A stretch of DNA of 64,000 nucleotides from Deltaproteobacteria bacterium (lineage in GTDB: Bacteria; Desulfobacterota; Binatia; UBA9968), in NCBI GenBank assembly GCA_016874755.1, contig VGTH01000005.1, positions 51,547 through 115,546 on the forward strand, in the 5' to 3' direction. The notes beneath the pieces were generated by a model. The model worked only from the letters and a program-made list of their open reading frames with translations, did no database searches and was not told the origin of the DNA. Both the position numbers and the translations under genes were made by a program. How positions within the stretch are numbered: position 1 is the stretch's first letter; each line of letters starts with the position of its first letter. Of the stretch, positions 2,443-59,955 are shown piece after piece.

Positions 2443-3783
2443 ATGGTTGAGTTGTGGCAACAAGCGCTGGCTAAGCTGAAAGAGAAACTTGGGAAGCAAA
2501 GCTTCGATACATGGATCAGACCTACCTCTTTCGTTTCACTCAATAAAACTGAATTACGAATTGCGGTTCCTAGCAAGCTCCATCGCGACTGGATCACCGA
2601 GCATTTCCTCGCACAGATCGAAGAAGTGATTGGCACTCTCTGCGGCCAAACTACTGCGGTCACTTTTGAAATTGATCCGGAGACCGTCGAGAAGCAAATC
2701 GCTAGTGAACGGACACTGCGCAAAGAGGATCGCGAAAAGCCACCTGTGCAAACGCCGCATCGAGTTAACAATCTTTCGGCCCGTTATACGTTCGATAGTT
2801 TCGTTGTCGGCGCAAGCAACCAGTTTGCCCATGCGGCTTCGCTTGCAGTAGCGAACAAGCCTGGGCTCCATTATAACCCGCTCTTTATCTATGGCGGCGT
2901 TGGCCTGGGCAAGACCCACCTCGTCAATGCCATTGGCAATCAAGCAGCCAATCACAATGGCCAACTGAAGGTTCTCTACCTGAGCTCAGAGTCGTTCATG
3001 AATGAGCTGATTGGCTCGCTCAGGCGCGACAAGATGGACGAATTCAAAACAAAGTTTCGTAATGTCGATGTTTTGATTCTCGACGACGTTCAGTTCATCG
3101 CCGGTAAGGAACGTACCCAAGAAGAGTTCTTTCACACCTTTAACTCTCTTTACGATGCCCATAAGCAAATCGTTTTGACGTCGGATAAATTTCCCAAGGA
3201 AATCCCCGGCCTGGAAGATCGGCTACGCAACCGCTTCGAGTGGGGTTTGATCGCTGACATTCAACCTCCTGACGTGGAGACCCGGATTGCGATCTTGCAA
3301 AAGAAAGCCGTCGAACTCAATGTCCAACTGCCACAGGAGATCGGCATTTTTCTCGCCAGCAACATCAGCTCAAATGTCCGCGAGCTCGAAGGCGGCCTCA
3401 CTCGGTTATCGGCTTTCTCATCGATGACGAAGGCCGCGCTCACCATTGACCTGGCCAAAGAGGTGCTGCGCAATATCTTGAGAGATGCACGGCCGGAAGT
3501 GACGGTCGAAGGGATTCAAAAGGCGATCTGCGATTATTACAACGTCAAAATCGGCGAATTGAAAGCTAAACGAAGAACGCAAAACATCGCGCTGCCACGG
3601 CAAGTTGCAATGTATCTCTGCCGCAAACACACCGATACCTCTTTTCCTGCCATCGGCGCCAAATTCGGCGGGCGCGACCACTCCACCGTGATCCACGCAT
3701 CCAAAACCATCGAGCAGCGCATCAAAGACGACCCGCAGATGCAGATCACCATCGAAAAGCTTGAGCGCACTCTAAAGAAATAG
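2443..3783 (+). CDS. dnaA: chromosomal replication initiator protein DnaA
   Basis: MVELWQQALAKLKEKLGKQSFDTWIRP N-terminus, Walker A GGVGLGKTHL, box VII and a C-terminal DnaA-box-binding domain. 446 aa. Confidence 0.97.
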   Translation: MVELWQQALAKLKEKLGKQSFDTWIRPTSFVSLNKTELRIAVPSKLHRDWITEHFLAQIEEVIGTLCGQTTAVTFEIDPETVEKQIASERTLRKEDREKPPVQTPHRVNNLSARYTFDSFVVGASNQFAHAASLAVANKPGLHYNPLFIYGGVGLGKTHLVNAIGNQAANHNGQLKVLYLSSESFMNELIGSLRRDKMDEFKTKFRNVDVLILDDVQFIAGKERTQEEFFHTFNSLYDAHKQIVLTSDKFPKEIPGLEDRLRNRFEWGLIADIQPPDVETRIAILQKKAVELNVQLPQEIGIFLASNISSNVRELEGGLTRLSAFSSMTKAALTIDLAKEVLRNILRDARPEVTVEGIQKAICDYYNVKIGELKAKRRTQNIALPRQVAMYLCRKHTDTSFPAIGAKFGGRDHSTVIHASKTIEQRIKDDPQMQITIEKLERTLKK

Positions 3784-5117: not shown

Positions 5118-5136
5118 TCCGCGCTTTGCGGTTCGG

Positions 5137-5168
5137 AATCTCAGATTTCAAATTTCAGATCTCAAAGA
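5137..5168. repeat. copy of the aatctcagatttcaaatttcagatctcaaa word repeat between dnaN and the ICL/PEPM gene
   Basis: Identical 28-nt core to 59880-59907. Confidence 0.6.
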
Positions 5169-5177
5169 AGACATCTG

Positions 5178-6041
5178 CTAGCTTTTATATTTCGCATCGA
5201 GAGCGTATTTTTCATTTAATCCGACGATCGCATTAAAATCGTCAAAGGCCATCAGGCGATCCAAGATCGCCAACGTCGAGCCGTCGCGCCGCAGGGTGGT
5301 GTAAACTTCGGTCAACGATTTCGCCACTGAATAGAGTGGCGCCAGCGGCCAGACGATTAGCTCAAAGCCCAAATCTTTCAGCTCATTGGGACCCATCAGC
5401 GGGGTTACGCCGCGTTCCAGCATGTTGGCCACCAGCGGGCCGGGCACCTGGCCTGCAATCTCGCGCATTTCTTCCTTCGATTCTGGCGCTTCGATGAAAA
5501 CTGCATCGGCACCAGCGCTTTTGAAAGCGATGCCACGATCGATCGTGTCTTTTAAGCCGAGCGCCTGGCGCGCGTCGGTGCGCGCAACGATGAAGAAATC
5601 GCTGTCGCCTTTGGCTTCGACGGCGGCTTTGAGCTTTTTCAACTGTTCGTCGATTGGAATAACCTGCTTGCCCTTCATGTGGCCGCAGCGTTTTGGCCAG
5701 ACCTGATCTTCAAGAAACATGCCGGCGGCACCGGCGCGGGTGAGATCTTGCACTGTGCGGATGACATTGATGGCGTTGCCGTAGCCGGTATCGGCGTCGA
5801 CAATGACCGGGGTTTCGACAACAGAACAAATCCGCTGTGCGGCTGCCACCACCTCGGTCTGGGTAAGGAGACCAAAGTCAGGTTCGCCGAGGAGCGTCGC
5901 CGATAGGCTGTAGCCGGTGATGAAGATGACTTCAAAACCGGCGCGGGCTGCGATCTTGGCGCTCAGGGCGTCATAGACGCCTGGCATGATGAGCTGGCCT
6001 TTAGTTTCTAAAGACTGGCGAATGAGGTTCCCTTTGCCCAT
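5178..6041 (-). CDS. isocitrate lyase/PEP mutase family protein (2-methylisocitrate lyase / carboxyvinyl-carboxyphosphonate phosphorylmutase-like)
   Basis: GVYDALSAKIAARAGFEVIFITGYSLSATLLGEPDFGLL...DADTGYG...KRCGH motifs of the ICL/PEPM superfamily. Confidence 0.8.
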   Translation of the reverse strand: MGKGNLIRQSLETKGQLIMPGVYDALSAKIAARAGFEVIFITGYSLSATLLGEPDFGLLTQTEVVAAAQRICSVVETPVIVDADTGYGNAINVIRTVQDLTRAGAAGMFLEDQVWPKRCGHMKGKQVIPIDEQLKKLKAAVEAKGDSDFFIVARTDARQALGLKDTIDRGIAFKSAGADAVFIEAPESKEEMREIAGQVPGPLVANMLERGVTPLMGPNELKDLGFELIVWPLAPLYSVAKSLTEVYTTLRRDGSTLAILDRLMAFDDFNAIVGLNEKYALDAKYKS

Positions 6042-7815: not shown

Positions 7816-7906
7816 GGGCGCGAAATAAGAAAGGGCGACCAACCGGTCGCCCCTGCGAATCCCATATCGGCGTAGATGGGTTAGCGAAGCGTAACCCAAC
7901 GTTCTA

Positions 7907-15954: not shown

Positions 15955-16010
15955 GGGAAGTGTTGGGTTACGCTGCGCTAACCCAACCTACGCAGATGTG
16001 TCTCTCGGAA

Positions 16011-22964: not shown

Positions 22965-24494
22965 GTGTTGATAAAACATGAATTTGCTGTGACGCGAAGA
23001 GATTTTCTGCGCGGTGTGCTCGCCACTGGCACCGGCTTGGCCGTCGGCCGCGATTTTTCCTGGGCGGGCAGCGCGCCGGAGCGTTTGGTCGTGGCGATGA
23101 GTGTGGGCGTCGATGCGATGAGCCCTTACGCGCAGACCGACGCACCGCTTTACGGCCTGTGGGGCCATGTGATGGAGTCGCTGGTAGACACCGAGTACGA
23201 TAAGAAGGGGATGGGGTTTCGCGGCGAGCTGGCCGAGTCGTGGAGTCCCAAAGGCAGCGAGTGGACCTTTAAACTACGCAAAGGAGTGGTCTTCCACGAC
23301 GGCTCGCCGTTGACGGCGAAGGATGTTGCCTATTCCTTCGATCGCATCCTCAACGACAAGGATAGCTTGCAGCGCCCCAATCTCTCCGACATCAAAGAGA
23401 TCAAAACAGCCGATGACAACACGCTCGTGCTCGTGACCAAAGGGCCCAAGGTGGCGCTGTTGTCGCTCCTGTACAATCGGATAATTTTAAGTCACAAAGC
23501 CGCCGAGCGCCTAGGCGACAAAGTCGACACGCAAGCCATCGGCACTGGACCGTACCGCTATGTCTCGTGGCAGCGCGGCGGCTACTTCACCATGCGGCGC
23601 AATGACAAATATTGGGGCAGAGCCGCGACCATCCGCGAAATCGTCTGGCGCCCGATCAAAGAGCCGGCGGCGCGCGTGGCGGCCATCGAATCGGGCCAAG
23701 CGGATATCATCAATCAGGTGCCGGTGCACGATATCGAGCGGCTCAAGCGGAACTCGCGGGTGCGCGTCGAGCTGGTGCGTGGCCTGCGCAATCTTTACAT
23801 CGGCTTGAATCCGGGTCATAAACCCTTCGATAATAAACTGGTGCGCCAGGCGTTTAATTACGCCGTCGATCAGGAATCGATCATCAAACATATTCACGAA
23901 GCCCAGGTTTACGCTCTCAAGGGACTGCTCGCGCCGCAGAATTACGGCTACGATCCCGACCTGGCCAACTATCCCTACGACCCAGAAAAGGCGAAAAAAC
24001 TTCTCACCGAAGCGGGCTACCCCAACGGTGTTACGGTGGATTTCTACACCCACACCGGCCGCTACTCGAAAGACAAAGAGACTGCGGAGGCGATCGTCAG
24101 CCAGCTCGCCAAAGCCGGCATCAAAGCGGATATTAAGACACCCGAGTACGCCATCTACGAGGCGGAGTTTAACGCCGGCAAGTACGGCATGTATATGTTC
24201 GGGCGCGGCTCGATTACCGATCCCGAACCGTTTTACATCCGCTATTTTCGCTCCGGGCGGGGCAAGCGCTTGCTCTACAAAAATGCCGAATTCGACCGCA
24301 TCTTCGATTTGCAGTCGGAAACCTTCGACGCCGCCAAGCGCGAAGAGATGCTGCGCCAGATGGGGCGCATCTTGCATGAGGACTGTCCGGTGATTCCTCT
24401 CTATAATACCGCCGACGTGTACGCCGTGCGGCGGGATCTCGCGTGGACGCCGCGGCCGGATGAGAAAATTCAACTGACGGCCGCCAAGTTCTAA
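22965..24494 (+). CDS. ABC transporter substrate-binding protein, family 5 (Dpp/Opp/Nik-like), Tat signal
   Basis: TRRDFLRGVLATGTGLAVG twin-arginine leader and a 509 aa SBP_bac_5 architecture. Confidence 0.85.
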   Translation: MLIKHEFAVTRRDFLRGVLATGTGLAVGRDFSWAGSAPERLVVAMSVGVDAMSPYAQTDAPLYGLWGHVMESLVDTEYDKKGMGFRGELAESWSPKGSEWTFKLRKGVVFHDGSPLTAKDVAYSFDRILNDKDSLQRPNLSDIKEIKTADDNTLVLVTKGPKVALLSLLYNRIILSHKAAERLGDKVDTQAIGTGPYRYVSWQRGGYFTMRRNDKYWGRAATIREIVWRPIKEPAARVAAIESGQADIINQVPVHDIERLKRNSRVRVELVRGLRNLYIGLNPGHKPFDNKLVRQAFNYAVDQESIIKHIHEAQVYALKGLLAPQNYGYDPDLANYPYDPEKAKKLLTEAGYPNGVTVDFYTHTGRYSKDKETAEAIVSQLAKAGIKADIKTPEYAIYEAEFNAGKYGMYMFGRGSITDPEPFYIRYFRSGRGKRLLYKNAEFDRIFDLQSETFDAAKREEMLRQMGRILHEDCPVIPLYNTADVYAVRRDLAWTPRPDEKIQLTAAKF

Positions 24495-25850: not shown

Positions 25851-25885
25851 GTAGGGGCGAAATATTTTTCGCCCTTCCTTCGTGC
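25851..25885 (+). terminator. intrinsic terminator carrying the conserved GTAGGGGCG hairpin
   Basis: gtaggggcgaaatatttttcgccc then ttccttcg, preceded by the shared word acgaagatcacgaagttcggatgt. Confidence 0.55.
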
Positions 25886-27789: not shown

Positions 27790-29322
27790 ATGAGTCGTGA
27801 TTTTAGCCGGCGATCATTTTTGAAAGCGGGCGCAACGGCGGCAGCCGCAATCGCGGCGTGGCCGCGCTATGTTTTGGATGCCAGCGCGGCGTCGCGCGAC
27901 CGGGTGACGATTTTTCACTCGAGCGTGGCCGACTCGATCCATCCCTACAATCATAGCTCCAGCCCGATCTACGGCAACTGGCAGCATGTCATCGAGCCGC
28001 TGCTTGAATACAGCGTTGACCGAAAGGACTTTGTCGGCGTGCTCGTCGAGTCTTGGCAGTTCCAGGGCAACAAGTGGGTCTTCAAGCTGCGCAAGGGTGT
28101 GAAGTTTCACAATGGCGCGACCTTCACAGCGAAGGACGTGGTCTTCTCCGTGGAAAAAATGCGCGATGAAAAGGGCGGCAGCCTGCAGGCGCCCAATTTC
28201 AAAGACGTCGCCGAGATTCAAACCCCGGACGATTACACCGTGGTTTTCGTTACCAAGCAGCCCATGGCGGTATTTTTAGACCGGCTCGATAACCGCTTCG
28301 TGTTGAGCAAAGAAGCCGGCGATAAATTTGGCGATAAGATTTATGAAAACCTTATCGGCACCGGCCCGTATAAATTTGTCAGCTACCAGCGCGGCGGCAA
28401 CCTGGTGTTCACCCGTAACGACGACTACTGGGGCGGACGAGCCAACATCAAAGAAGTCGTCTTCAAGAAAGTAACCGAAGACGCGGCGCGCTTGGCAGCG
28501 CTGGAGTCGGGCCAAGCGGACTTCATCAACAATGTGCCGGACCATGAAGTGGCGCGCTTGAAAAAACATCCGCGCGTGCGCATCGACCAGGTCGAAGGAC
28601 AGCGGATGTTTTTCTTTGCCTTCAACATGGCGTTTAAGCCATGGGACAACAAACTGGTGCGCCAGGCGGCCAACTATAGCGTCGATGCGCCGGCGATTAT
28701 TCGAAACATCTTCGACGGTATCGGCTATCCGTGCAACGGGCCGGTGGGCGCCAACGTTTTCGGTGCCGACCCGAAACATAAGCGCTATCCGTACGATCCC
28801 AAGAAGGCCAAAGAGTTGCTGGCTCAAGCGGGCTTTCCTAACGGCTGCGATATCCAACTTTACTACTCCGCGGGGCGCTATCCCAAAGACCGCGAAATCT
28901 GCCAAGTGGTGGCCGCGCAAATGGTCAAGAGCGGTTTTCGCGTCGAGCTGATCTCGCAGGAATGGGCGCTATTTTGGGACAAGCAGGGAGTCAACGGTGG
29001 CCGGCTGCCTTTTTACTACATTGGTCGCGGCGGCTTGACCGACGCCGATACGCTGTATGATCAATACTTCCGCACCGGGACAACCAAGAGGACCAACTAC
29101 AGCAACCCTGAGTACGACAAGCTCATCGAAGAGCAGCAGCGCACCTCCGATTCAAAAAAGCGCACGCAGATCCTGCAGCAGGCTGGCAAACATATCATGG
29201 ACGAAGCCTTGTTCATCCCGCTGTTTAACCTCGCGGACATCTACGGTGTCGCGAGGAATTTGGAGTGGAAGAAGCGCCCGGATGAAAAGATCAAGGCCTG
29301 GGACATGAAGATCAAGGCATAG
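27790..29322 (+). CDS. ABC transporter substrate-binding protein family 5, second paralog
   Basis: MSRDFSRRSFLKAGATAAAAIAAW Tat leader, preceded by ggaggg. Confidence 0.88.
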   Translation: MSRDFSRRSFLKAGATAAAAIAAWPRYVLDASAASRDRVTIFHSSVADSIHPYNHSSSPIYGNWQHVIEPLLEYSVDRKDFVGVLVESWQFQGNKWVFKLRKGVKFHNGATFTAKDVVFSVEKMRDEKGGSLQAPNFKDVAEIQTPDDYTVVFVTKQPMAVFLDRLDNRFVLSKEAGDKFGDKIYENLIGTGPYKFVSYQRGGNLVFTRNDDYWGGRANIKEVVFKKVTEDAARLAALESGQADFINNVPDHEVARLKKHPRVRIDQVEGQRMFFFAFNMAFKPWDNKLVRQAANYSVDAPAIIRNIFDGIGYPCNGPVGANVFGADPKHKRYPYDPKKAKELLAQAGFPNGCDIQLYYSAGRYPKDREICQVVAAQMVKSGFRVELISQEWALFWDKQGVNGGRLPFYYIGRGGLTDADTLYDQYFRTGTTKRTNYSNPEYDKLIEEQQRTSDSKKRTQILQQAGKHIMDEALFIPLFNLADIYGVARNLEWKKRPDEKIKAWDMKIKA

Positions 29323-29354
29323 AGAGTCCGAGCCCGCGTTGTTGACGGTATGAA

Positions 29355-29549
29355 GGCGATCGAGGTGGAACTCTGGAGGAGCGAAGGCAACAGGGCATCG
29401 CGTAAACGCCGCGATGTAGGGGCGACCGGCGGTCGCCCTCTTTTGCGACCTAGCGATGCAAGAATCGAAGATGAATTCCAAGCAGCGGCAAACGAAACGA
29501 AAGTTTCGCGCTGATGCCTTCGCTCCTCCAGAGTTCCACCTCGATCGCC
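29355..29549. repeat. MITE-like element: perfect 35-bp terminal inverted repeats around a 125-bp core
   Basis: ggcgatcgaggtggaactctggaggagcgaaggca (29355-29389) is the exact reverse complement of 29515-29549. The core contains a GTAGGGGCG terminator hairpin (29416-29448). Confidence 0.75.
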
Positions 29550-29647
29550 ACAGTATCGTTGGTTTCCCAAGAACCTGAATAGCCCGGGCTAAGTCTGGGG
29601 GCGGAGGGTGCGCAACGACAGCAGCAGATTTCCCAATAGGAGCATTG

Positions 29648-31177
29648 ATGAGTTCAAGAGGTAACGGAATCAATCGCAGAGATTTTCTCAAGAACAGCGC
29701 CATCGCGGGTCTTGGTGCACTCGCCAGTTCAGGATTGGCCAAGTTCAGCTATGCGGCCTCGAAGGACCGCCTCACGGCGCTGAGCAGCATCGGTCTCGAC
29801 ACCCTGCACCCCTATGCGCACAGCTCGAGCCCACAATACGGCATCTGGCACAACATGCTCGAGCCGTTGGTAGAAGTCGACTACGCCAAGAAAGATTACT
29901 TCGGCGTCCTCGCCGAGTCATGGCAATTTCAGGGCAAGAAGTGGGTGATCAAGCTGCGCAAGGGCGTCCGCTTTCACGATACCAGCCCGTTCACCGCTAA
30001 AGACGTCGTCTACTCGATCAACCGATTGAAAAACGACAAAGAGAGCATGCAAAAAGATAACTTTCGCGACTTTGTCGAGGTCCAGGCGGCGGATGATCAT
30101 ACCGTGATCATAACCACTGAGCAGCCGGTGGCGGTGATGATGGACCGCTTGCAGAACCGCTTCATCCTCTCGAAATCCGGCACCGAAGCGCAAGGTAGTC
30201 AGGGCGAGTTAAAGCCCGTCGGTACCGGCCCGTACAAGTTTCAAAGCTGGCAGCGCGACGGCAATCTCGTGATGGTGCGCAACGACAGCTACTGGGGAAC
30301 GAAGCCGTCGGTCCGAGAGATCGTCGTGCGCCGTGTGAAAGAGGACTCCGCTCGGGTCGCGGGCTTGCTCGCCGGGCAAGGCGATGTGACCAACAATGTG
30401 CCGGTGGAAGAGCTGTCGCGCTTCGATAACCATCCGCGCATTCGCGCGGAGAAAGTCGAAGGCGTGCGCATGTATTTTCTCGCCATGAACGTGACGCACA
30501 AGCCGTTTGATAACAAATTAGTCCGCCAGGCGATCAACTACGCGGTCGATCCGTCGGCGATCATCAAACATATTTACGAAGGCAACGGCTACGTGATGAA
30601 CGGCCCGCTCGGCTCCAACGTCATCGGCTTCGATCCCAAGATCAAGCGCTATCCAGTAGACATCAATAAAGGCAAGGAGCTGCTCACCAAAGCCGGCTAT
30701 CCCAACGGCTTGGACATAAAGCTTTATTTTTCACCCGATCGCTATCCCAAAGCCAAAGAGGTCTGCCAGGTGATCGCCGACCAATTAGCCAAGATCGGCA
30801 TCAAAACCGAATTGGTCTCGCAGGAGTTCGTCATCTTCTGGGGCAAAGAAGGCGTCAACGGCGGCAAGCTCGGCTTTTACTACGTCGGCCGCCCGGCGGC
30901 GGACGCCGATACGGTTTACGATCAGTACTATCGCTCCGGCGTCAGCCCGCGCATTCAATACAAGAATCCGGAGTTCGACAAGCTGATCGATGAAGAGCAA
31001 AGGATCGGCGACCCGAAAAAGCGCATCGCACTACTGCAACAGGCAGGGCGTATTCTCATGGAAGACGTGCCGTTCTGCCCGCTCTACACATTGGCAGAAA
31101 TCTACGGCGTCGCGCGCAACGTGAAATGGAAAGCGCGGCCGGATGAAAAGCTGCTTTACGCAGATATGAAGATTTGA
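29648..31177 (+). CDS. ABC transporter substrate-binding protein family 5, third paralog
   Basis: MSSRGNGINRRDFLKNSAIAGLGALASSG Tat leader, preceded by RBS aggag. Confidence 0.88.
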   Translation: MSSRGNGINRRDFLKNSAIAGLGALASSGLAKFSYAASKDRLTALSSIGLDTLHPYAHSSSPQYGIWHNMLEPLVEVDYAKKDYFGVLAESWQFQGKKWVIKLRKGVRFHDTSPFTAKDVVYSINRLKNDKESMQKDNFRDFVEVQAADDHTVIITTEQPVAVMMDRLQNRFILSKSGTEAQGSQGELKPVGTGPYKFQSWQRDGNLVMVRNDSYWGTKPSVREIVVRRVKEDSARVAGLLAGQGDVTNNVPVEELSRFDNHPRIRAEKVEGVRMYFLAMNVTHKPFDNKLVRQAINYAVDPSAIIKHIYEGNGYVMNGPLGSNVIGFDPKIKRYPVDINKGKELLTKAGYPNGLDIKLYFSPDRYPKAKEVCQVIADQLAKIGIKTELVSQEFVIFWGKEGVNGGKLGFYYVGRPAADADTVYDQYYRSGVSPRIQYKNPEFDKLIDEEQRIGDPKKRIALLQQAGRILMEDVPFCPLYTLAEIYGVARNVKWKARPDEKLLYADMKI

Positions 31178-31179
31178 TC

Positions 31180-31207
31180 GTAGTGACAGGTCGCGACCTG
31201 TCACTAC
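31180..31207. promoter_or_regulatory. perfect 28-nt palindrome immediately after the third SBP gene
   Basis: gtagtgacaggtc gc gacctgtcactac with no U-tract. Could be an operator or a bidirectional hairpin. Confidence 0.5.
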
Positions 31208-31326
31208 ACGCGCTCGTAGGATGGGTTGAGCGTCAGCGATACCCATCACCCAACCGCGTCTCGAAAGAGAAGCATGACATTGGGGTCAACACGGCGTAGG
31301 GGCGCAATTCATTGCGCCCGCCCGAC

Positions 31327-32211
31327 TCAGTTCGTCACCGCCGTGCCCGTCAGCATCTGAATAATTCGCTCCAAGTCGTCCGTCGAGTAGTATTCGATTT
31401 CAATCTTGCCTTTTTTCGATCTTGCCTTCGGCAGCAAGCGCACCTTGGTGCCGAGGCGGCGCTGAATATTTTCAACTAAAGATCGTAAATCCGGATCGAG
31501 CTGACCCGGTTCGCGCCGGCGCCGCCGGCCGGTTTTCAAGTGGCGCACGAGCTTTTCCGTTTCGCGCGTCGACAAGCCTTTACTGATAACTTCCCGCGCA
31601 GCGGAAACGATCAACAAGTCTGCCTGCAGGCCAAGTAGCGCCCGCGCTTGGCCGGCGGGAAGATTACCGGCGGCTACTTCATGTTGTACTTCGCTCGGCA
31701 GTGAGAGCAACCGAATCGAGTTGGCGATCGCCGGACGGCTCTTGCCAACTTTGTCGGCCATCTCTTCGTTGCTCCAGCTAAACTCTTGCTGCAGTCGTCG
31801 GTAGCCGTTGGCTTCCTCGATGGGGTTCAAGTCTTCGCGCTGAAGATTTTCGACTAGCGCCAGCTGCAGCGCCTCTTGATCGCTAGCTTCACGCACGACC
31901 ACCGGAACCTCGGTGAGGCCGGCCTTCATGGCGGCGCGCCAGCGGCGCTCACCGGCGATCAGCTCGTAGTCGCCGTCCTTGGGCCGGACGACAAGCGGCT
32001 GAATGATCCCCTGATTGCGGATCGAGGCCGCGAGCTCGTCGATTTTCGCCTCATCGAACGTGCGGCGTGGCTGAAACGGGCTCGGCGTGATGCGCTCAAC
32101 GCCGACTTCCGTGGTGGCGGATTCCCCGTGAGGTTCAACCAGCGGCTCACTAGCGCTCGGGATCAGCGCGCTCAGACCTCTACCAAGTCCCATTTTTTTC
32201 GGCACTGACAT
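31327..32211 (-). CDS. parB: chromosome partitioning protein ParB (Spo0J)
   Basis: [11 protein letters not shown] ParB box, [24 protein letters not shown]. Confidence 0.92.
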
Positions 32212-32983
32212 TTTCTTCTTCAGCTCCACGATTAATTAGTTCTCTGGCTAAATCTTGATAATCCTGCGCTCCGGTTGACGTGGGATCGTACAAGCAAATG
32301 GGTTTGCCGTAACTTGGACTTTCGCTCAGACGCACATTGCGGCGGATGATGGTTTGAAAAATCTTGTCGGGAAAATGGCTGCGAATCTCCTCGACGACTT
32401 GATGTGAGAGGCGGTTGCGGCTGTCGAACATAGTGATGACGATGCCCTCGAGCGTTAGAGCCGGATTCAAATTTTTCTGCACCAGGCTGACGGTTTCTAA
32501 AATCGCAGTGAGTCCCTCAAGGGCGTAGTATTCACTTTGGATCGGCACGATAAGAGAGTTGGCGGCTGTCAACGCATTGAGCGTAATCAGTCCAAGTGAC
32601 GGTGGACAATCAAGCAGCACGTAGTCATAGTGATCGCGCACAGTGGTCAGCGCGTCTTTGAGGCGAAACTCGCGCCGCTCAACGCTTACCAGTTCGATCT
32701 CAGCGCCGACGAGGTTTTTACTCGCTGGAATCATTAGTAGCTGAGGAATCTCGGTTTGGCAGAGGACTTCGCCGATGAAGCGCGTGCCCGAAAGCACTTC
32801 ATACAGGCTCCCTTGCAAGGCGGAACGGTCGATGCCGAGGCCCGTGGTGCTGTTGCCTTGGGGATCGATGTCGACCAATAGAGTTCGTTTGCCTTCAGTC
32901 GCCAGCGCCGCGGCGAGATTAATCGAAGTCGTGGTCTTGCCCACGCCCCCCTTCTGATTCGCGATCGCCAGAACGACACTCAT
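32180..32983 (-). CDS. parA: chromosome partitioning ATPase ParA (Soj)
   Basis: [28 protein letters not shown] deviant Walker A. Confidence 0.95.
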
Positions 32984-33073
32984 ATATTTCTCTTTAAAAT
33001 CAATATGTTATGATTTTATTGCCGACGTGACCAAAGTACCACGAAGAGTTAAGAAAGGAAAGAAAAATCTATC

Positions 33074-33089
33074 CGTTTCACGTGAAACA
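33074..33089. promoter_or_regulatory. parS centromere site
   Basis: cGTTTCACGTGAAACa matches the TGTTTCACGTGAAACA consensus across the full 14-bp palindromic core. Confidence 0.85.
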
Positions 33090-33107
33090 GATCAGAAAAG
33101 GCGAAGA

Positions 33108-34988
33108 TTAAGCGCTCTTGCGCCGGGTCAAATGCACTGATAGCAGCGATATCGCCGCGGGTGTAACGCCCGAAATACGTGAGGCTTGGCCCAGTGAGCG
33201 TGGCCGGATGCGGGTGAGTTTCTCGCACACCTCTCGCGATAGCCCGCTGATCTGCGAGTAGTCGAAATCTTCTGGAACTCGCACATGCTCCATTTTTTGG
33301 AATCGCTGCACGATTTCCACTTGGCGGTCGACGTAGCCTTCGTATTTTGTGCTGAGCTCGACCTGAGCATCGGCGTCAGCTGAGAAGCTCGGCATGTCCG
33401 GAGCCAGGCGGCGGAGCTGATTCAGGCTAACTTCGGGTCGGCGCAGTAGCTGCGCCAGTGAGCAATGGTTCTTCAGTGGCGCTGTGCCGAGCTCCGTAAG
33501 CAGCGCATTGACTTCGCTGGTCGGAGTCACCTGCCGACTTTGCAGGAATGCATTGAGCTGGTCGATCGCATTTTTCTTATCTACGACCCGGATATTTCGT
33601 TTGCTATTCGCAAGGCCGATCCGATGACCTATTTCAGTGAGTCGCAAGTCGGCATTGTCCTCGCGCAACAATAGGCGATACTCGGCTCGTGAAGTAAACA
33701 TTCTATAGGGTTCGCTATCCGTGCCCTTGGTCACCAAGTCGTCGACTAGCACGCCGAGGTAAGCTTGGTCGCGGGAGAAGACGATGGGCTCTTGGCCGCG
33801 CAGGCTCAAGACAGCGTTTATCGCTGCAATCAATCCCTGAGCCGCTGCTTCCTCGTAGCCGGTGGTTCCGTTGATCTGTCCCGCATGGTAAAGCCCGCGC
33901 ACCAGCTTGGTTTCGAGCGACGGATGGAGCTGGGTCGGCTCGACGTAGTCGTATTCGATGGCGTAGCCCGGACGCATGATCTCGGCGTTTTCGAGTCCTT
34001 CGATCGAATGAACCATCTCGAGTTGCACATCTAGGGGTAGACTTGTCGACAAACCATTGGGATATACCTCGACAGTGTCGAGTCCCTCCGGCTCTAAGAA
34101 TATCTGGTGGCGGCTCTTATCGGCGAAGCGATGGATCTTGTCTTCGATCGACGGGCAGTAGCGCGGCCCACGGCTCTTGATGATTCCGGAATACATGGGC
34201 GAGCGATGCAGTGCGGCCCGTATCACTTCGTGGGTGCGTTCATTGGTATAAGTTATGTGGCAAGGCACCTGGCGCTGGGTGACACCGTTGCTCAAGAAAG
34301 AAAATGGCATCGGCGGATCGTCGCCGGGTTGGACTTGGAGATTTGAATAATCGATAGTGCGCGCATCGAGGCGTGGGCAGGTGCCGGTCTTGAGACGACC
34401 TACTTTGAAGCCGAGCGCAACCAGTGACTCGCTCAAACCTTGCACAGCGAAGTCGCCGGCACGACCAGCGGAATAGTTAGTCTCCCCGATATGGATCAGC
34501 CCTTTAAGAAAAGTACCAGTGGTGAGGATGACGCGTCGGCCGTAGAACTTCTCACCGATCTGAGTTTCGACGCCCTTGACTTCGCCGTTCTCTACTAGCA
34601 GTTTCTCTGCACTACCTTGGCGCAGGGTTAGTCCAGGGCAGTTTTCCAAAACACGCTTCATGCGCAACCTGTAAAGAGCCTTATCAGCCTGCGCTCTTGA
34701 GGCACGGACCGCTGGGCCTTTGCGGGTATTGAGCATGCGAAACTGAATACCGGTTTCGTCAATTGCCAAACCCATCTCGCCGCCCAGGGCGTCAATCTCT
34801 TTCACCAGGTGGCCTTTTCCAATGCCACCGATGGCTGGGTTGCAGGACATCTGGCCAATGTGGTCCAGATTCAAAGTAAGCATCAGCGCGTCGCAGCCCA
34901 TGCGAGACACAGCCAAGCAGGCTTCGATGCCGGCATGGCCGGCGCCGACGACTATCACCTCGAAAATCTTGTTCTGTCTCGTGCTCAT
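33108..34988 (-). CDS. mnmG: tRNA uridine 5-carboxymethylaminomethyl modification enzyme MnmG (GidA)
   Basis: [21 protein letters not shown] motif, 626 aa, MnmG C-terminal domain. Confidence 0.96.
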
Positions 34989-35004
34989 TGTTTCACGTGA
35001 AACG
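34989..35004. promoter_or_regulatory. second parS site
   Basis: TGTTTCACGTGAAACg, 15 of 16 to consensus, overlapping the mnmG start codon region. Confidence 0.85.
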
Positions 35005-35064
35005 GGACCCGGTGTGGGTGCAATTAATGCATTTTCACCAGGAAAGTTTCTATATTTATTTTAG

Positions 35065-36441
35065 TTACTTACCTATACAAAAGCTGCTGAACACATGGTC
35101 CAAAACAGCCTCATTGTCGATCACGCCGACGATCTCTTCCAAGCCCTGGCGTGCTTCGTTGAGATCAACGGCAATGAATTCGGGCGCATGGCCGAGTGAC
35201 AATGTCGCTGCGGCCCGGAGCAACGCTTGCTCGCTGCGAACGAGTGCGGCCTTGTGGCGTAGATTGGTTACGATCACCGGCGGTTCGCCAGCCGTCGAAA
35301 AGATTAGATCATGGAGAGTAAGCTTTAGGTTGTCTAGTCCGTCACCCGTCTTTGCCGATACCACTGTGACCTGGTCGATGTCGAACTCATGCGCGAGACT
35401 TTCAGGACTTATGATCTGCGGCATGTCCGCTTTGTTGATGACCGCCAATATTTTTTTCCCATTGCAGGATTGGATCAGCCCGATGTCATCGCCGGTCAGC
35501 GTAGTCGACCCGTCCAGCACGAGCATCACGGCGTCAGCTTGCTGCATATGGCGGCGCGACAGGTTCACTCCGATCTGCTCGACTTGGTCATCGGTTTCGC
35601 GTATTCCCGCAGTATCCCAAAGGACCACGCGCACGCCGGCTAGATTTAGCGATTCCTCGACAACGTCGCGGGTGGTACCCGGCACCGGGGTTACGATAAC
35701 CCGCTCCTCACCGAGCAATGCGTTCAAGAGGCTTGACTTACCGACGTTGGGGCGGCCGCAAAGGCACACGCGCACGCCTTCGCGCAGCAGGCGTCCATAT
35801 TCATAACTATTTGATATTATTACTATTTTTTCAAGTATGCCGGATAGTTTCTGGGCCAATTCTGAGGCCTGCAAGAGCTCAATATCCTCGTCCGGAAAAT
35901 CGATGGCGGCTTCCACTTGAGCGAGAATGTCGAGCAGCTCCTCGCGCAGTTCGTTAACCCATTTCGACAAGCCGCCGCTCATCTGCTCAAGGGCGACCGC
36001 GGCGCTTTTGTCGGTGCGTGCTTGAATCAACTCCAGCACCGCTTCGGCCTGGGCCAAGTCCATTCGACCGTTGAGAAAGCCACGCTTGGTGAATTCGCCC
36101 GGCTCGGCTTGTCGCGCCCCATGAGCCAAGACTAGCTGTAAGACCTGGCGAACAACGAATGCGCCGCCGTGGCAATGAATTTCAACGACGTCTTCACCGG
36201 TGTAGCTGTGCGGCTTGCGCATCACCGTGAGCAGCACCTGGTCCAACACTTTTTCCGAACGTGGATCGCGGATCTTGCCATAATAAAGTTTGTGCGAGTC
36301 GAGCGCGGCACCGTTGCGTTCTTTGCGCACGAAGATATCGCGAGCGATGCGCTCGGCATCGGGCCCGCTGATACGCACGATCGCCACACCGCCCTCACCC
36401 GGCGGCGTCGCGATGGCGGCTATCGTGTCTTCCTTATACAT
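35065..36441 (-). CDS. mnmE: tRNA modification GTPase MnmE (TrmE)
   Basis: MYKEDTIAAIATPPGEGGVAIVRISG, G-domain GRPNVGKSSLLNAL, C-terminal CIGK. Confidence 0.96.
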   Translation of the reverse strand: MYKEDTIAAIATPPGEGGVAIVRISGPDAERIARDIFVRKERNGAALDSHKLYYGKIRDPRSEKVLDQVLLTVMRKPHSYTGEDVVEIHCHGGAFVVRQVLQLVLAHGARQAEPGEFTKRGFLNGRMDLAQAEAVLELIQARTDKSAAVALEQMSGGLSKWVNELREELLDILAQVEAAIDFPDEDIELLQASELAQKLSGILEKIVIISNSYEYGRLLREGVRVCLCGRPNVGKSSLLNALLGEERVIVTPVPGTTRDVVEESLNLAGVRVVLWDTAGIRETDDQVEQIGVNLSRRHMQQADAVMLVLDGSTTLTGDDIGLIQSCNGKKILAVINKADMPQIISPESLAHEFDIDQVTVVSAKTGDGLDNLKLTLHDLIFSTAGEPPVIVTNLRHKAALVRSEQALLRAAATLSLGHAPEFIAVDLNEARQGLEEIVGVIDNEAVLDHVFSSFCIGK

Positions 36442-38480: not shown

Positions 38481-38516
38481 CGAAAAAACCAAGGGCGTGA
38501 TGAATCACGCCCCTAC
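38481..38516 (-). terminator. intrinsic terminator with GTAGGGGCG hairpin after the MR/MLE-family gene
   Basis: Minus strand reads gtaggggcgtgattcatcacgccc ttggttttttcg. Confidence 0.7.
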
Positions 38517-39726: not shown

Positions 39727-39758
39727 AGAGATTACTTTTTCGGATTCGGATTATGTAA

Positions 39759-39910
39759 CCGCAAAGAACGCAGAGAACGCAAAGAAATACAAAATTCGCG
39801 ATGACCATTACCGCTTGACCAGCTCTCAACGTATCTTATTGTGAGTGGTAAAATCCCCCAAGTCCGAGCGCGCGCAGCGCGCCTTTGTGTTCTTTGCGTT
39901 GCGGTTAAAT
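39759..39910. repeat. left repeat blocks flanking the cupin gene (3 x 9-bp CGCARAGAA iterons plus a second degenerate block)
   Basis: cgcaaagaa cgcagagaa cgcaaagaa at 39759-39790. Related block ...tgtgttctttgcgttgcggttaaat at 39869-39910. Confidence 0.65.
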
Positions 39911-39920
39911 TCTCCGGTTC

Positions 39921-40387: not shown

Positions 40388-40486
40388 TATCTTTGCGTTC
40401 TCTGCGTACTTTGCGGTTAAATGGTGCGTTTCACAATCTGGGCGCGCAGCGCCTTTTGTGCTTCCTTGTGCTCTTTGTGGTTTCCC
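40388..40486. repeat. right repeat blocks flanking the cupin gene
   Basis: tatctttgcgttctctgcgtactttgcgg (40388-40417) is the inverted copy of the left iteron block. 40441-40486 (gcgcgcagcgccttttgtgcttccttgtgctctttgtgg) is a direct copy of 39869-39910. Confidence 0.65.
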
Positions 40487-59525: not shown

Positions 59526-59540
59526 CCGAAACGGCATTGC

Positions 59541-59645
59541 AGATTACAAATTCCAAATTCCAGATTGTTCGCGACCGCGGGGCTTAATTTGAAATCTTGA
59601 ATTTGGAATTCGTAATTCCGAGCGAAGCGAGGACCAGCGAGGACA
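59541..59645. repeat. AT-rich palindromic word repeat (attacaaattccaaattccagatt / inverted copy) ending in attccgagcgaagcgagga
   Basis: 24-bp imperfect inverted repeat (59544-59567 versus 59593-59616). Related copy at 59866-59955. Both flank the FmdB-like gene. Confidence 0.65.
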
Positions 59646-59646
59646 A

Positions 59647-59862
59647 ATGCCGATCTTCGAATACAATTGCAGCGATTGCGAGCATCACTTCGAAACTATC
59701 GTGCTGTCGACGCGGGAAAAGATCAGTTGCCCCAAATGCGACAGCCGATCCGTGAGAAAGCAGCTGTTAGTTTTTAGCTCACCAGCCTCGGGCAAGGAAG
59801 CTAGCGCCGCGCCATCTGGCGGGGGCTGTGGCTGTACACCGTCCAGCTGCGGCTGCCACTAA
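59647..59862 (+). CDS. FmdB-family zinc-ribbon putative regulatory protein
   Basis: MPIFEYNCSDCEHHFE...CPKCDS CxxC..CxxC ribbon and a Cys/Gly/Ser-rich tail. Confidence 0.7.
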   Translation: MPIFEYNCSDCEHHFETIVLSTREKISCPKCDSRSVRKQLLVFSSPASGKEASAAPSGGGCGCTPSSCGCH

Positions 59863-59865
59863 TCG

Positions 59866-59955
59866 AAGCGAATTTCAAATCTCAGATTTCAGATCTCAAA
59901 CTCGGATTTTTGTCCGCATGTTTGAGATTCCGAGCTCAGCGAGGACTCTGCGGAT
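59866..59955. repeat. second copy of the AT-rich word repeat (aatttcaaatctcagatttcagatctcaaa) ending in attccgagctcagcgagga
   Basis: Shares the tctcagatttcaaatttcagatctcaaa word with 5137-5168 and shares related word motifs with 10245-10295. Confidence 0.65.

Follow-up and report, generated by a model that had tools for sequence, protein, structure and literature searches.

A probable old MITE with a presumably rewritten inner arm in the spacer between two paralogous solute-binding protein genes of a Binatia bacterium

We analysed a 64-kb stretch of DNA (64,000 nucleotides, hereafter the window) from a bacterium of the Binatia, an uncultured soil and freshwater lineage, in which two neighbouring genes for solute-binding proteins, SBP2 and SBP3, are separated by a spacer with an exact 35-nt inverted repeat. 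Comparison with related sequences makes it likely that this spacer holds an old and divergent MITE of about 240–260 bp, that a REP is nested in it, and that its left inner arm has been rewritten from its right inner arm. We propose that a non-coding, almost fully palindromic element inserted into the short SBP2-SBP3 operon spacer and that the termini and the flanking duplication of this copy then decayed; the core would have acquired a GTAG-tagged REP hairpin from a separate dispersed repeat family, and the normally imperfect left inner arm would have been rewritten with the conserved right arm as template. A striking repeat would thus be explained by three stacked ordinary processes, namely MITE insertion, a nested REP and templated quasipalindrome correction, and the Binatia gain a MITE family that is apparently new to the literature and for which a filled/empty pair of sites is demonstrated.

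The inverted repeat and its host locus

SBP2 (27790–29322, plus strand; Pfam SBP_bac_5, E=5e-89) is a family-5 solute-binding protein with a TAT-type signal; its likely start is the ATG at 27790, preceded by GGAGG, and its exact 510-aa product is recorded in 5 contigs. SBP3 (29648–31177, plus strand; Pfam E=2.7e-86) belongs to the same family and starts with the ATG at 29648, preceded by AGGAG; its exact product is present in 4 contigs, and its orthologs carry the name Candidatus Binatia. The two proteins are paralogs, 55% identical, and the 325-nt gap between their genes holds the element. A third SBP_bac_5 paralog lies at 22965–24494, between a hydrolase and an aminotransferase gene, and is absent from the closest relatives (L009–L012); two other contigs, L013 and L014, have three tandem SBP genes downstream of permeases instead. 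The set of SBP paralogs is being reshuffled between lineages. ParB, ParA, MnmG and MnmE are annotated after SBP3 on the opposite strand (31327–36441, minus), and their presence beside SBP3 indicates that the locus is probably near the replication origin. The short unannotated gap between ParA and MnmG may contain rsmG.

The initial annotation of this DNA had drawn attention to two exact inverted 35-nt copies around a 125-bp core, and both the copies and the core (29390–29514) were recovered as described. The 64-kb window contains two exact occurrences of the 35-mer GGCGATCGAGGTGGAACTCTGGAGGAGCGAAGGCA, at 29355–29389 (+) and 29515–29549 (-), and no further match even when 3 mismatches were allowed; such a pair appeared in 0 of 100 shuffles, which places it far above chance. 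The repeat reaches 42 nt at 95% when two mismatches are included (29355–29396 / 29508–29549). The GC content of 60% that had been given for the genome does not hold locally, where values are about 0.52–0.60. In the region of the element GC is about 0.55–0.58, like its surroundings, so the element is not AT-rich.

The 35-mers had been taken for terminal repeats, which was a mistake. Comparison with the family described below sets the element ends at about 29332 and 29589, that is, 23 and 40 nt outside the 35-mers. The full palindromic, MITE-like element accordingly measures 258 bp (29332–29589, plus strand, like all parts listed here; family alignment A2), its boundaries having been placed just inside the flanking TA; they become 29333–29588 if the duplication is 4 bp. 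From left to right, it consists of a left outer arm, which is a decayed terminal inverted repeat (29332–29354; family consensus GCCCGGATTATTCATGGTGCAACA) and is base-paired to the right outer arm in the structure of minimum free energy; the left inner arm, a perfect 35-mer (29355–29389); the core; the right inner arm, also a perfect 35-mer (29515–29549), which lies within the family's most conserved block; and the right outer arm (29550–29589), made of a small hairpin and a decayed terminal repeat ending in CTGAATAGCCCGGGC. The termini of this copy have decayed to CCCGCGTTGTTGACG and CCTGAATAGCCCGGG. Its flanks read GA and TA, or CGAG and CTAA at 4 bp, and to judge from the letters they are a decayed target duplication.

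A dispersed family of palindromic elements

A search of JGI metagenomes with an arm 20-mer returned one contig (L004) with two related copies within 2.2 kb, which follow a RidA-like gene and an rpoZ-like ORF (the latter assigned by eye), respectively; the search was incomplete, as the arm-bearing JGI contig L017 was not returned. An exact arm 26-mer had no match in 185,579 species genomes. The 24-mer GCGCTGATGCCTTCGCTCCTCCAG, which is invariant in all seven copies, revealed a further copy in each of four MAGs labelled Syntrophobacter or deltaproteobacteria. High copy number is typical of MITEs; the exact 24-mer occurs once per genome, in 4 of the 185,579 species genomes. In all, six more copies were found on five contigs (L004–L008) from Binatia or "deltaproteobacterial" MAGs, which brings the family to 7 copies and 1 decayed partial copy on 6 contigs. 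The closest named relatives of the proteins beside the window copy and beside the L007 copy are Candidatus Binatia. The decayed partial copy, at L008 7835–7998 (minus strand; nhmmer E=1.9e-6), is separated by about 1.6 kb from that contig's intact copy and runs off the end of the locus.

Mean column identity in the alignment of six full copies is 77%, and nhmmer with the family alignment scores the window copy at E=2.4e-64. The copies are 239–258 bp long, hence below 500 bp, and non-coding; they begin with CCCGGATTATTCATG and end with CATGAATAATCCGGG, and their terminal inverted repeats match perfectly over 15 nt in L008 and nearly so in L005 and L007. Conservation across the family peaks not at the termini but in an internal stretch of about 55 nt around the right inner arm, an uncommon pattern for a passive MITE and a hint of constraint.

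Within the window, no other copy or terminus was detected by blastn (word size 7), nhmmer or a 14-mer search with 2 mismatches, and no copy turned up in some 215 kb of further Binatia loci retrieved by way of orthologous genes. Thus the check for further copies that had been proposed for this repeat found a single element in the window and related ones in other contigs. Rfam 15 gave no match at E<=1 for window positions 28000–31000 or for L004–L008, and neither did plasmid blastn or viral contigs searched with two patterns. No autonomous IS sharing the element ends appeared in the plasmid blastn, the viral scans or the fetched loci. In the library of papers searched, none described this family or Binatia repeats or mobile elements. 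The MITE family is apparently undescribed and has so far been seen in Binatia-type MAGs only.

All copies are intergenic, and their contexts are unrelated, as expected of a MITE that occupies dispersed sites: the neighbours are YggU, an amidohydrolase/TctC pair, CorC, a sigma-54 regulator with ThiE, RidA, the SBPs and the rpoZ-like ORF. The flanking 4-mers are CTAG/CTAG in L007 and L008, CTAT/CTAT in L005, TTAG/TTAG in L006 and CTAG/CTAC in L004. Direct repeats accordingly flank four or five of the six copies (perfect 4-bp ones in four of six), and TA borders 11 of the 12 element ends. The target-site duplication that the initial annotation had suggested looking for is therefore degenerate at the window copy and preserved as direct repeats at other members of the family.

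An empty site for the L007 copy was sought in loci of CorC orthologs with 89–90% identity. The filled site in L007 reads GGATCGCC-CTAG-[237 bp]-CTAG-GGAGTATT, and the empty site in L027–L029 reads GGATCGCC-ATAG-GGAGTATT; the flanks align base for base, and the empty site holds one TA. L007 and these orthologs thus form a filled/empty pair with a target duplication, from which it follows that the element family is mobile, and the notion that its members occupy only fixed orthologous positions is contradicted for L007 by this polymorphism. The comparison of sites shows that the family transposes into NTAG/TA sites, duplicating either the TA or a 4-bp target. A 2-bp TA duplication and a 4-bp NTAG duplication fit the same data, the non-palindromic pairs of L005 and L006 slightly favouring 4 bp.

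At the window locus itself, orthologous SBP2-SBP3 spacers in relatives with the same gene order measure 95, 58 and 51 nt, compared with 325 nt here, and subtraction of the element leaves 67 nt, inside the 51–95-nt range of the relatives. A base-exact empty site for the window copy was not obtained, the spacers of the closest relatives being unalignable; the SBP3 proteins of these relatives are 93% identical, and divergence at 4-fold sites is 41–55%. Taken together, the dispersed intergenic copies, the direct repeats, the L007 empty site and the short spacers of the relatives argue for a MITE-type insertion. The earlier suggestion of a miniature transposable element was therefore right in kind, given the related copies at non-homologous sites, their direct repeats and the empty site, and wrong in anatomy. 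That the insertion is recent finds no support for the window copy, in which termini, flanking repeats and core have all decayed and the arms alone are perfect. The usual definition of a prokaryotic MITE fits the family; the exceptions are AT-richness, an established high copy number and an identified partner transposase. The defining features are those of earlier work (PMC2229807, PMC10969869), in which AT-richness is typical and not obligatory (PMC10969869).

Several known systems resemble the family in part. Like the Correia or NEMIS elements of Neisseria, its members are non-coding and intergenic, have TA termini with a target duplication, and fold as a whole into a long hairpin when co-transcribed (PMC2229807, PMC10969869). 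Unlike Correia elements, which measure 104–155 bp, they are about 240–260 bp long, and there is no sequence similarity between the two; the Binatia family is also GC-rich and, as far as seen, of low copy number. Its TA-containing targets, the TA at both ends and its non-autonomous nature are shared with MITEs of the IS630/Tc1-mariner type such as RUP of Streptococcus pneumoniae, which is mobilised by IS630-Spn1, and IS630 is classically reported to prefer targets of the CTAG type. However, no IS630-family partner with matching ends was found in our searches, and for the CTAT/CTAT and TTAG/TTAG copies a duplication of 4 bp is a slightly better fit than one of 2 bp. The IS5 group makes a 4-bp YTAR duplication under ISfinder conventions. 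The flanking CTAG, TTAG and CTAA match YTAR, as in IS5-derived MITEs, whereas the CTAT flank does not, no transposase partner was identified, and the element termini, which start with CCCGGATT, are presumably unlike IS5 ends.

The perfect inner arms and the nested hairpin

Although the perfect 35-nt arms are what makes the window copy conspicuous, they are not a property of the family. The inner arms are imperfect in all five other copies compared and perfect in the window only. In the other copies they contain a conserved 3x3 loop (TCC/TCC on this strand) and 2–4 further mismatches. When the left arm was compared with the reverse-complemented right arm over a 47-column block that includes the arms, 29–33 columns were identical in the five others and 41 in the window, where all 35 arm positions match. 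The right inner arm is nearly invariant in all copies. The left arm of the window differs from the family left arm at 6 positions, and all six differences (6/6) go toward the exact complement of the right arm.

Template switching is known to turn quasipalindromes into 'perfect or more perfect' ones (PMC7202029), and we infer that these six one-way changes are the signature of a templated quasipalindrome correction. The rewriting would have proceeded by an intramolecular template switch at the quasipalindrome or by an equivalent arm-to-arm conversion; gene conversion from arm to arm would give the same outcome as a template switch. The quasipalindrome (QP) reporters of E. coli offer a close likeness, in that an imperfect inverted repeat is made perfect in one step, several bases changing at once with the other arm as template (PMC7202029). 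The two cases differ in that the correction was observed there and is deduced from comparison here, and in that the arms here are 125 nt apart, farther than in classical hotspots. The window copy may provide a natural example of multi-base quasipalindrome correction. Two other accounts bear on the arms. Given how far its core has diverged, the copy may descend from a subfamily not yet seen, in which the master element already possessed perfect arms; and selection for pairing fits the arm data as well as template switching does. L005 also has matched compensatory changes in both arms, which points to arm co-evolution as a tendency of the family.

The core is the most altered part of the window copy. 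It is about 55% identical to the family cores (z 3.4–5.2 against shuffles), whereas the other cores are 78–92% identical to each other. It holds an 8-bp hairpin, CATCGCGT...GCGCGATG (29395–29417), directly upstream of a GTAG-tagged REP-like hairpin with a 9-bp stem, GTAGGGGCGACCGGCGGTCGCCC (29416–29438), after which comes a short T-rich tail, TCTTTTG (29439–29445), that is weakly terminator-like. The initial annotation had called a terminator hairpin in the core. The hairpin of GTAGGGGCG type is indeed present at 29416–29438, but its 9-bp GC stem and following UCUUUUG were not called by a terminator consensus scan. Hairpins with the 9-mer GTAGGGGCG number 5 in the window against 0.26 expected, all of them between genes, and the identical REP 26-mer occurs at an unrelated intergenic site in a related contig (L014:2710).

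GTAG-tagged REPs form a superfamily that has been described before (PMC3733652), and insertion of one repeat into another is also known (PMC10969869). With its GTAG tag, a GC-rich palindrome of the 20–40-nt class and extragenic recurrence, the core hairpin fits this superfamily, so that one repeat appears nested in another. The likeness to RAYT-associated, GTAG-tagged REPs and BIMEs, which includes recurrence at gene ends, covers the 23-nt nested hairpin only and not the 258-bp element.

Related hairpins are found elsewhere. Those composed of GTAGGGGCG, a loop and CGCCC, with variable stem interiors, stand at gene ends at 25851 and 31296 (+), at 38516 and 54984 (-), and at L014:2710. A BIME-like cluster fills 31180–31319, from the SBP3 stop to the end of the convergent parB, and consists of three different GTAG-tagged palindromes in a row (GTAGTGACAGGTCGCGACCTGTCACTAC, GTAGGATGGGTTGAGCGTCAGCGATACCCATC and GTAGGGGCGCAATTCATTGCGCCC).

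RNA folding, expression and alternative readings

Folding of the intergenic spacer, another of the checks suggested at the outset, gave a very stable structure: the SBP2-SBP3 spacer RNA reaches -165.6 kcal/mol (z=-10.6). Single elements of the family have minimum free energies of -86 to -151 kcal/mol and z-scores of -6.6 to -10.6, and the computed fold joins their 5' and 3' ends in a long stem-loop, as is usual for MITEs. No sigma-70-like promoter for SBP3 was detected in or after the element, and SBP3 therefore probably depends on read-through. A read-through SBP2-SBP3 transcript would form a long hairpin of great stability that contains 35 bp of perfect duplex and would be a plausible RNase III substrate, as in Correia elements; at the REP hairpin with its short U tail, some of the SBP2 transcripts may end or gain stability. 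Correia-containing mRNAs are cleaved at the repeats by RNase III (PMC2229807, PMC10969869), and the Correia or NEMIS stem alters the fate of neighbouring mRNAs in this way; by analogy, the Binatia family may have a similar effect. The element marks a candidate site for the uncoupling, by insertion, of two paralogous transporter genes that are transcribed together. The initial annotation had predicted a strong effect on the coupling of the two genes; we take any such effects on SBP2-SBP3 expression to be probably incidental and not a selected function.

The strongest competitor of a MITE with incidental effects is an exapted regulatory RNA, a form of the selected RNA stem that the initial annotation had offered as its alternative, in which the stem and the REP or terminator-like hairpin were selected to uncouple SBP3 from SBP2 or to tune their ratio; RNase III processing, protection of the SBP2 mRNA 3' end or partial termination could be the mechanism. 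The extreme folding z-score, arms that are perfect although the rest of the element has decayed, a sequence that is identical in six samples, the probable reliance of SBP3 on read-through and the Correia precedent all speak for it. Nevertheless, relatives manage with a spacer of 51–95 nt and no element, and the six samples share one sequence, so that there is no variation to reveal constraint. A stable stem, moreover, does not require closing of the conserved 3x3 loop, and the tail of the hairpin was not recognised by the terminator scan. We therefore regard selection for a regulatory RNA as unlikely, if worth keeping in mind.

A related possibility concerns the family as a whole. The internal right arm of roughly 55 nt stays invariant across species although the termini drift. 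The family consensus folds slightly better on the minus strand than on the plus strand (-83.0 versus -77.7 kcal/mol), with 39 versus 21 G.U cells; five distinct C.A and A.C arm mismatches (counted by eye) would all be G.U wobbles on the minus strand, where the conserved symmetric 3x3 loop reads GGA/GGA. This hint rests on six sequences, and the window copy folds better on the plus strand. Instead of a passive MITE, the family might thus carry a functional module, either a minus-strand structured RNA or an internal site bound by a transposase or host factor, a proposal that we consider quite doubtful. If it were true, the window copy would have been remodelled, with its loop closed and a REP added, into a device for SBP2/SBP3 processing or termination.

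Perfect inverted repeats around a short segment with an orientation-dependent hairpin and T tail also recall an inverton, in which the 35-bp repeats would be recombination sites and flipping of the 125-bp core would toggle an orientation-dependent terminator between SBP2 and SBP3. Assemblies made with k=31 do break in the arms, though any inverted repeat of at least k does so. All four assemblies that resolve the arm-core junction (4/4: the window, L001, L017 and L019) agree in orientation, and no recombinase was found among the 16 larger annotated ORFs of the interval from 17.4 to 39.7 kb, namely those for transporters, an aminotransferase, a hydrolase, ParAB, MnmG/E and an enolase-family protein, and two without Pfam hit. 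As the arms are imperfect in all other members, inversion is not a function of the family. We rejected the inversion switch, which is very improbable, on the single orientation and the absence of a recombinase nearby.

The spacer also contains small ORFs, and a small protein gene was considered among them: a 54-aa ORF (29350–29514) that opens 5 nt outside the left arm and ends precisely at the edge of the right arm, a 40-aa ORF (29456–29578) and a 33-aa ORF on the minus strand. The 19-codon micro-ORF reported earlier (MQESKMNSKQRQTKRKFRA) was a misreading, because its TGA is out of frame; the ORF in question is that of 40 codons at 29456–29578. Such ORFs exist mechanically, but no frame is conserved in the family, where indels shift frames and the start codon is missing in some copies; gene calling in L001 left this interval empty, look-ups of the 54-aa and 33-aa products returned no record, and no Shine-Dalgarno sequence lies upstream of the ORFs. 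The small-protein reading was rejected as hardly credible, the small ORFs being frameshifted or absent between copies. Another ORF of 26–28 codons, MKHLALMPSLLQGSTSIDTLSFVFLVA, is intact in 3 of 7 family copies, open but extended in L006, frameshifted in L005 and in the second L004 copy, and without a start codon in the window. Its presence is probably a side effect of the conserved arm.

Finally, mis-assembly can generate inverted repeats, yet a chimeric or palindromic mis-join is practically ruled out and was refuted by independent assemblies, because the same sequence recurs in ENA k141, JGI and several Logan contigs from six samples and other genomes hold homologous elements. The ENA k141 contig is identical to the window over 28284–31433, and the JGI contig L017 and the Logan contig L019 run from SBP2 via the left arm into the core. 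The identity of the window sequence in independent assemblies from six samples rules out an assembly artefact. Of the Logan k=31 contigs, four break off exactly 30 nt inside an arm, as an inverted repeat longer than k would make them. Among the Logan k=31 contigs L002, L003, L018, L020 and L019, ends lie 30 nt into either arm, and one lies inside the REP palindrome. Assemblers should be warned that inverted repeats of at least k systematically fragment k=31 assemblies.

Other repeats and a variable locus came to light in the same data. A second long inverted repeat (39753–39785 / 40390–40422; 33 nt, 94%) is built of a motif of the AAAGAACGCAGAGAACGCAAAGA type and brackets 604 nt, in which a small minus-strand ORF was seen by eye; further partial copies of this motif lie at about 39888–39912 and 40455–40480. 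AT-rich repeats, GAATCTCAGATTTCAAATTTCAGATCTCAAA, occur at two distant places (5136–5180 and 59534–59900), the latter with a local inverted repeat (59543–59566 / 59593–59616). Among near-identical contigs, the 1191-aa SNF2/helicase encoded at 2918–6493 in L021 and L022 is cut to 875 aa in L023, where the difference concerns 3027–3689 and an extra 220-aa gene without Pfam hits adjoins the shortened helicase; this could be an insertion or rearrangement polymorphism. Lastly, a 24-nt palindrome, TGGGTTAGCGAAGCGTAACCCAAC, is repeated in opposite orientation at 7877–7900 and 15962–15985, the two copies being 96% complementary.
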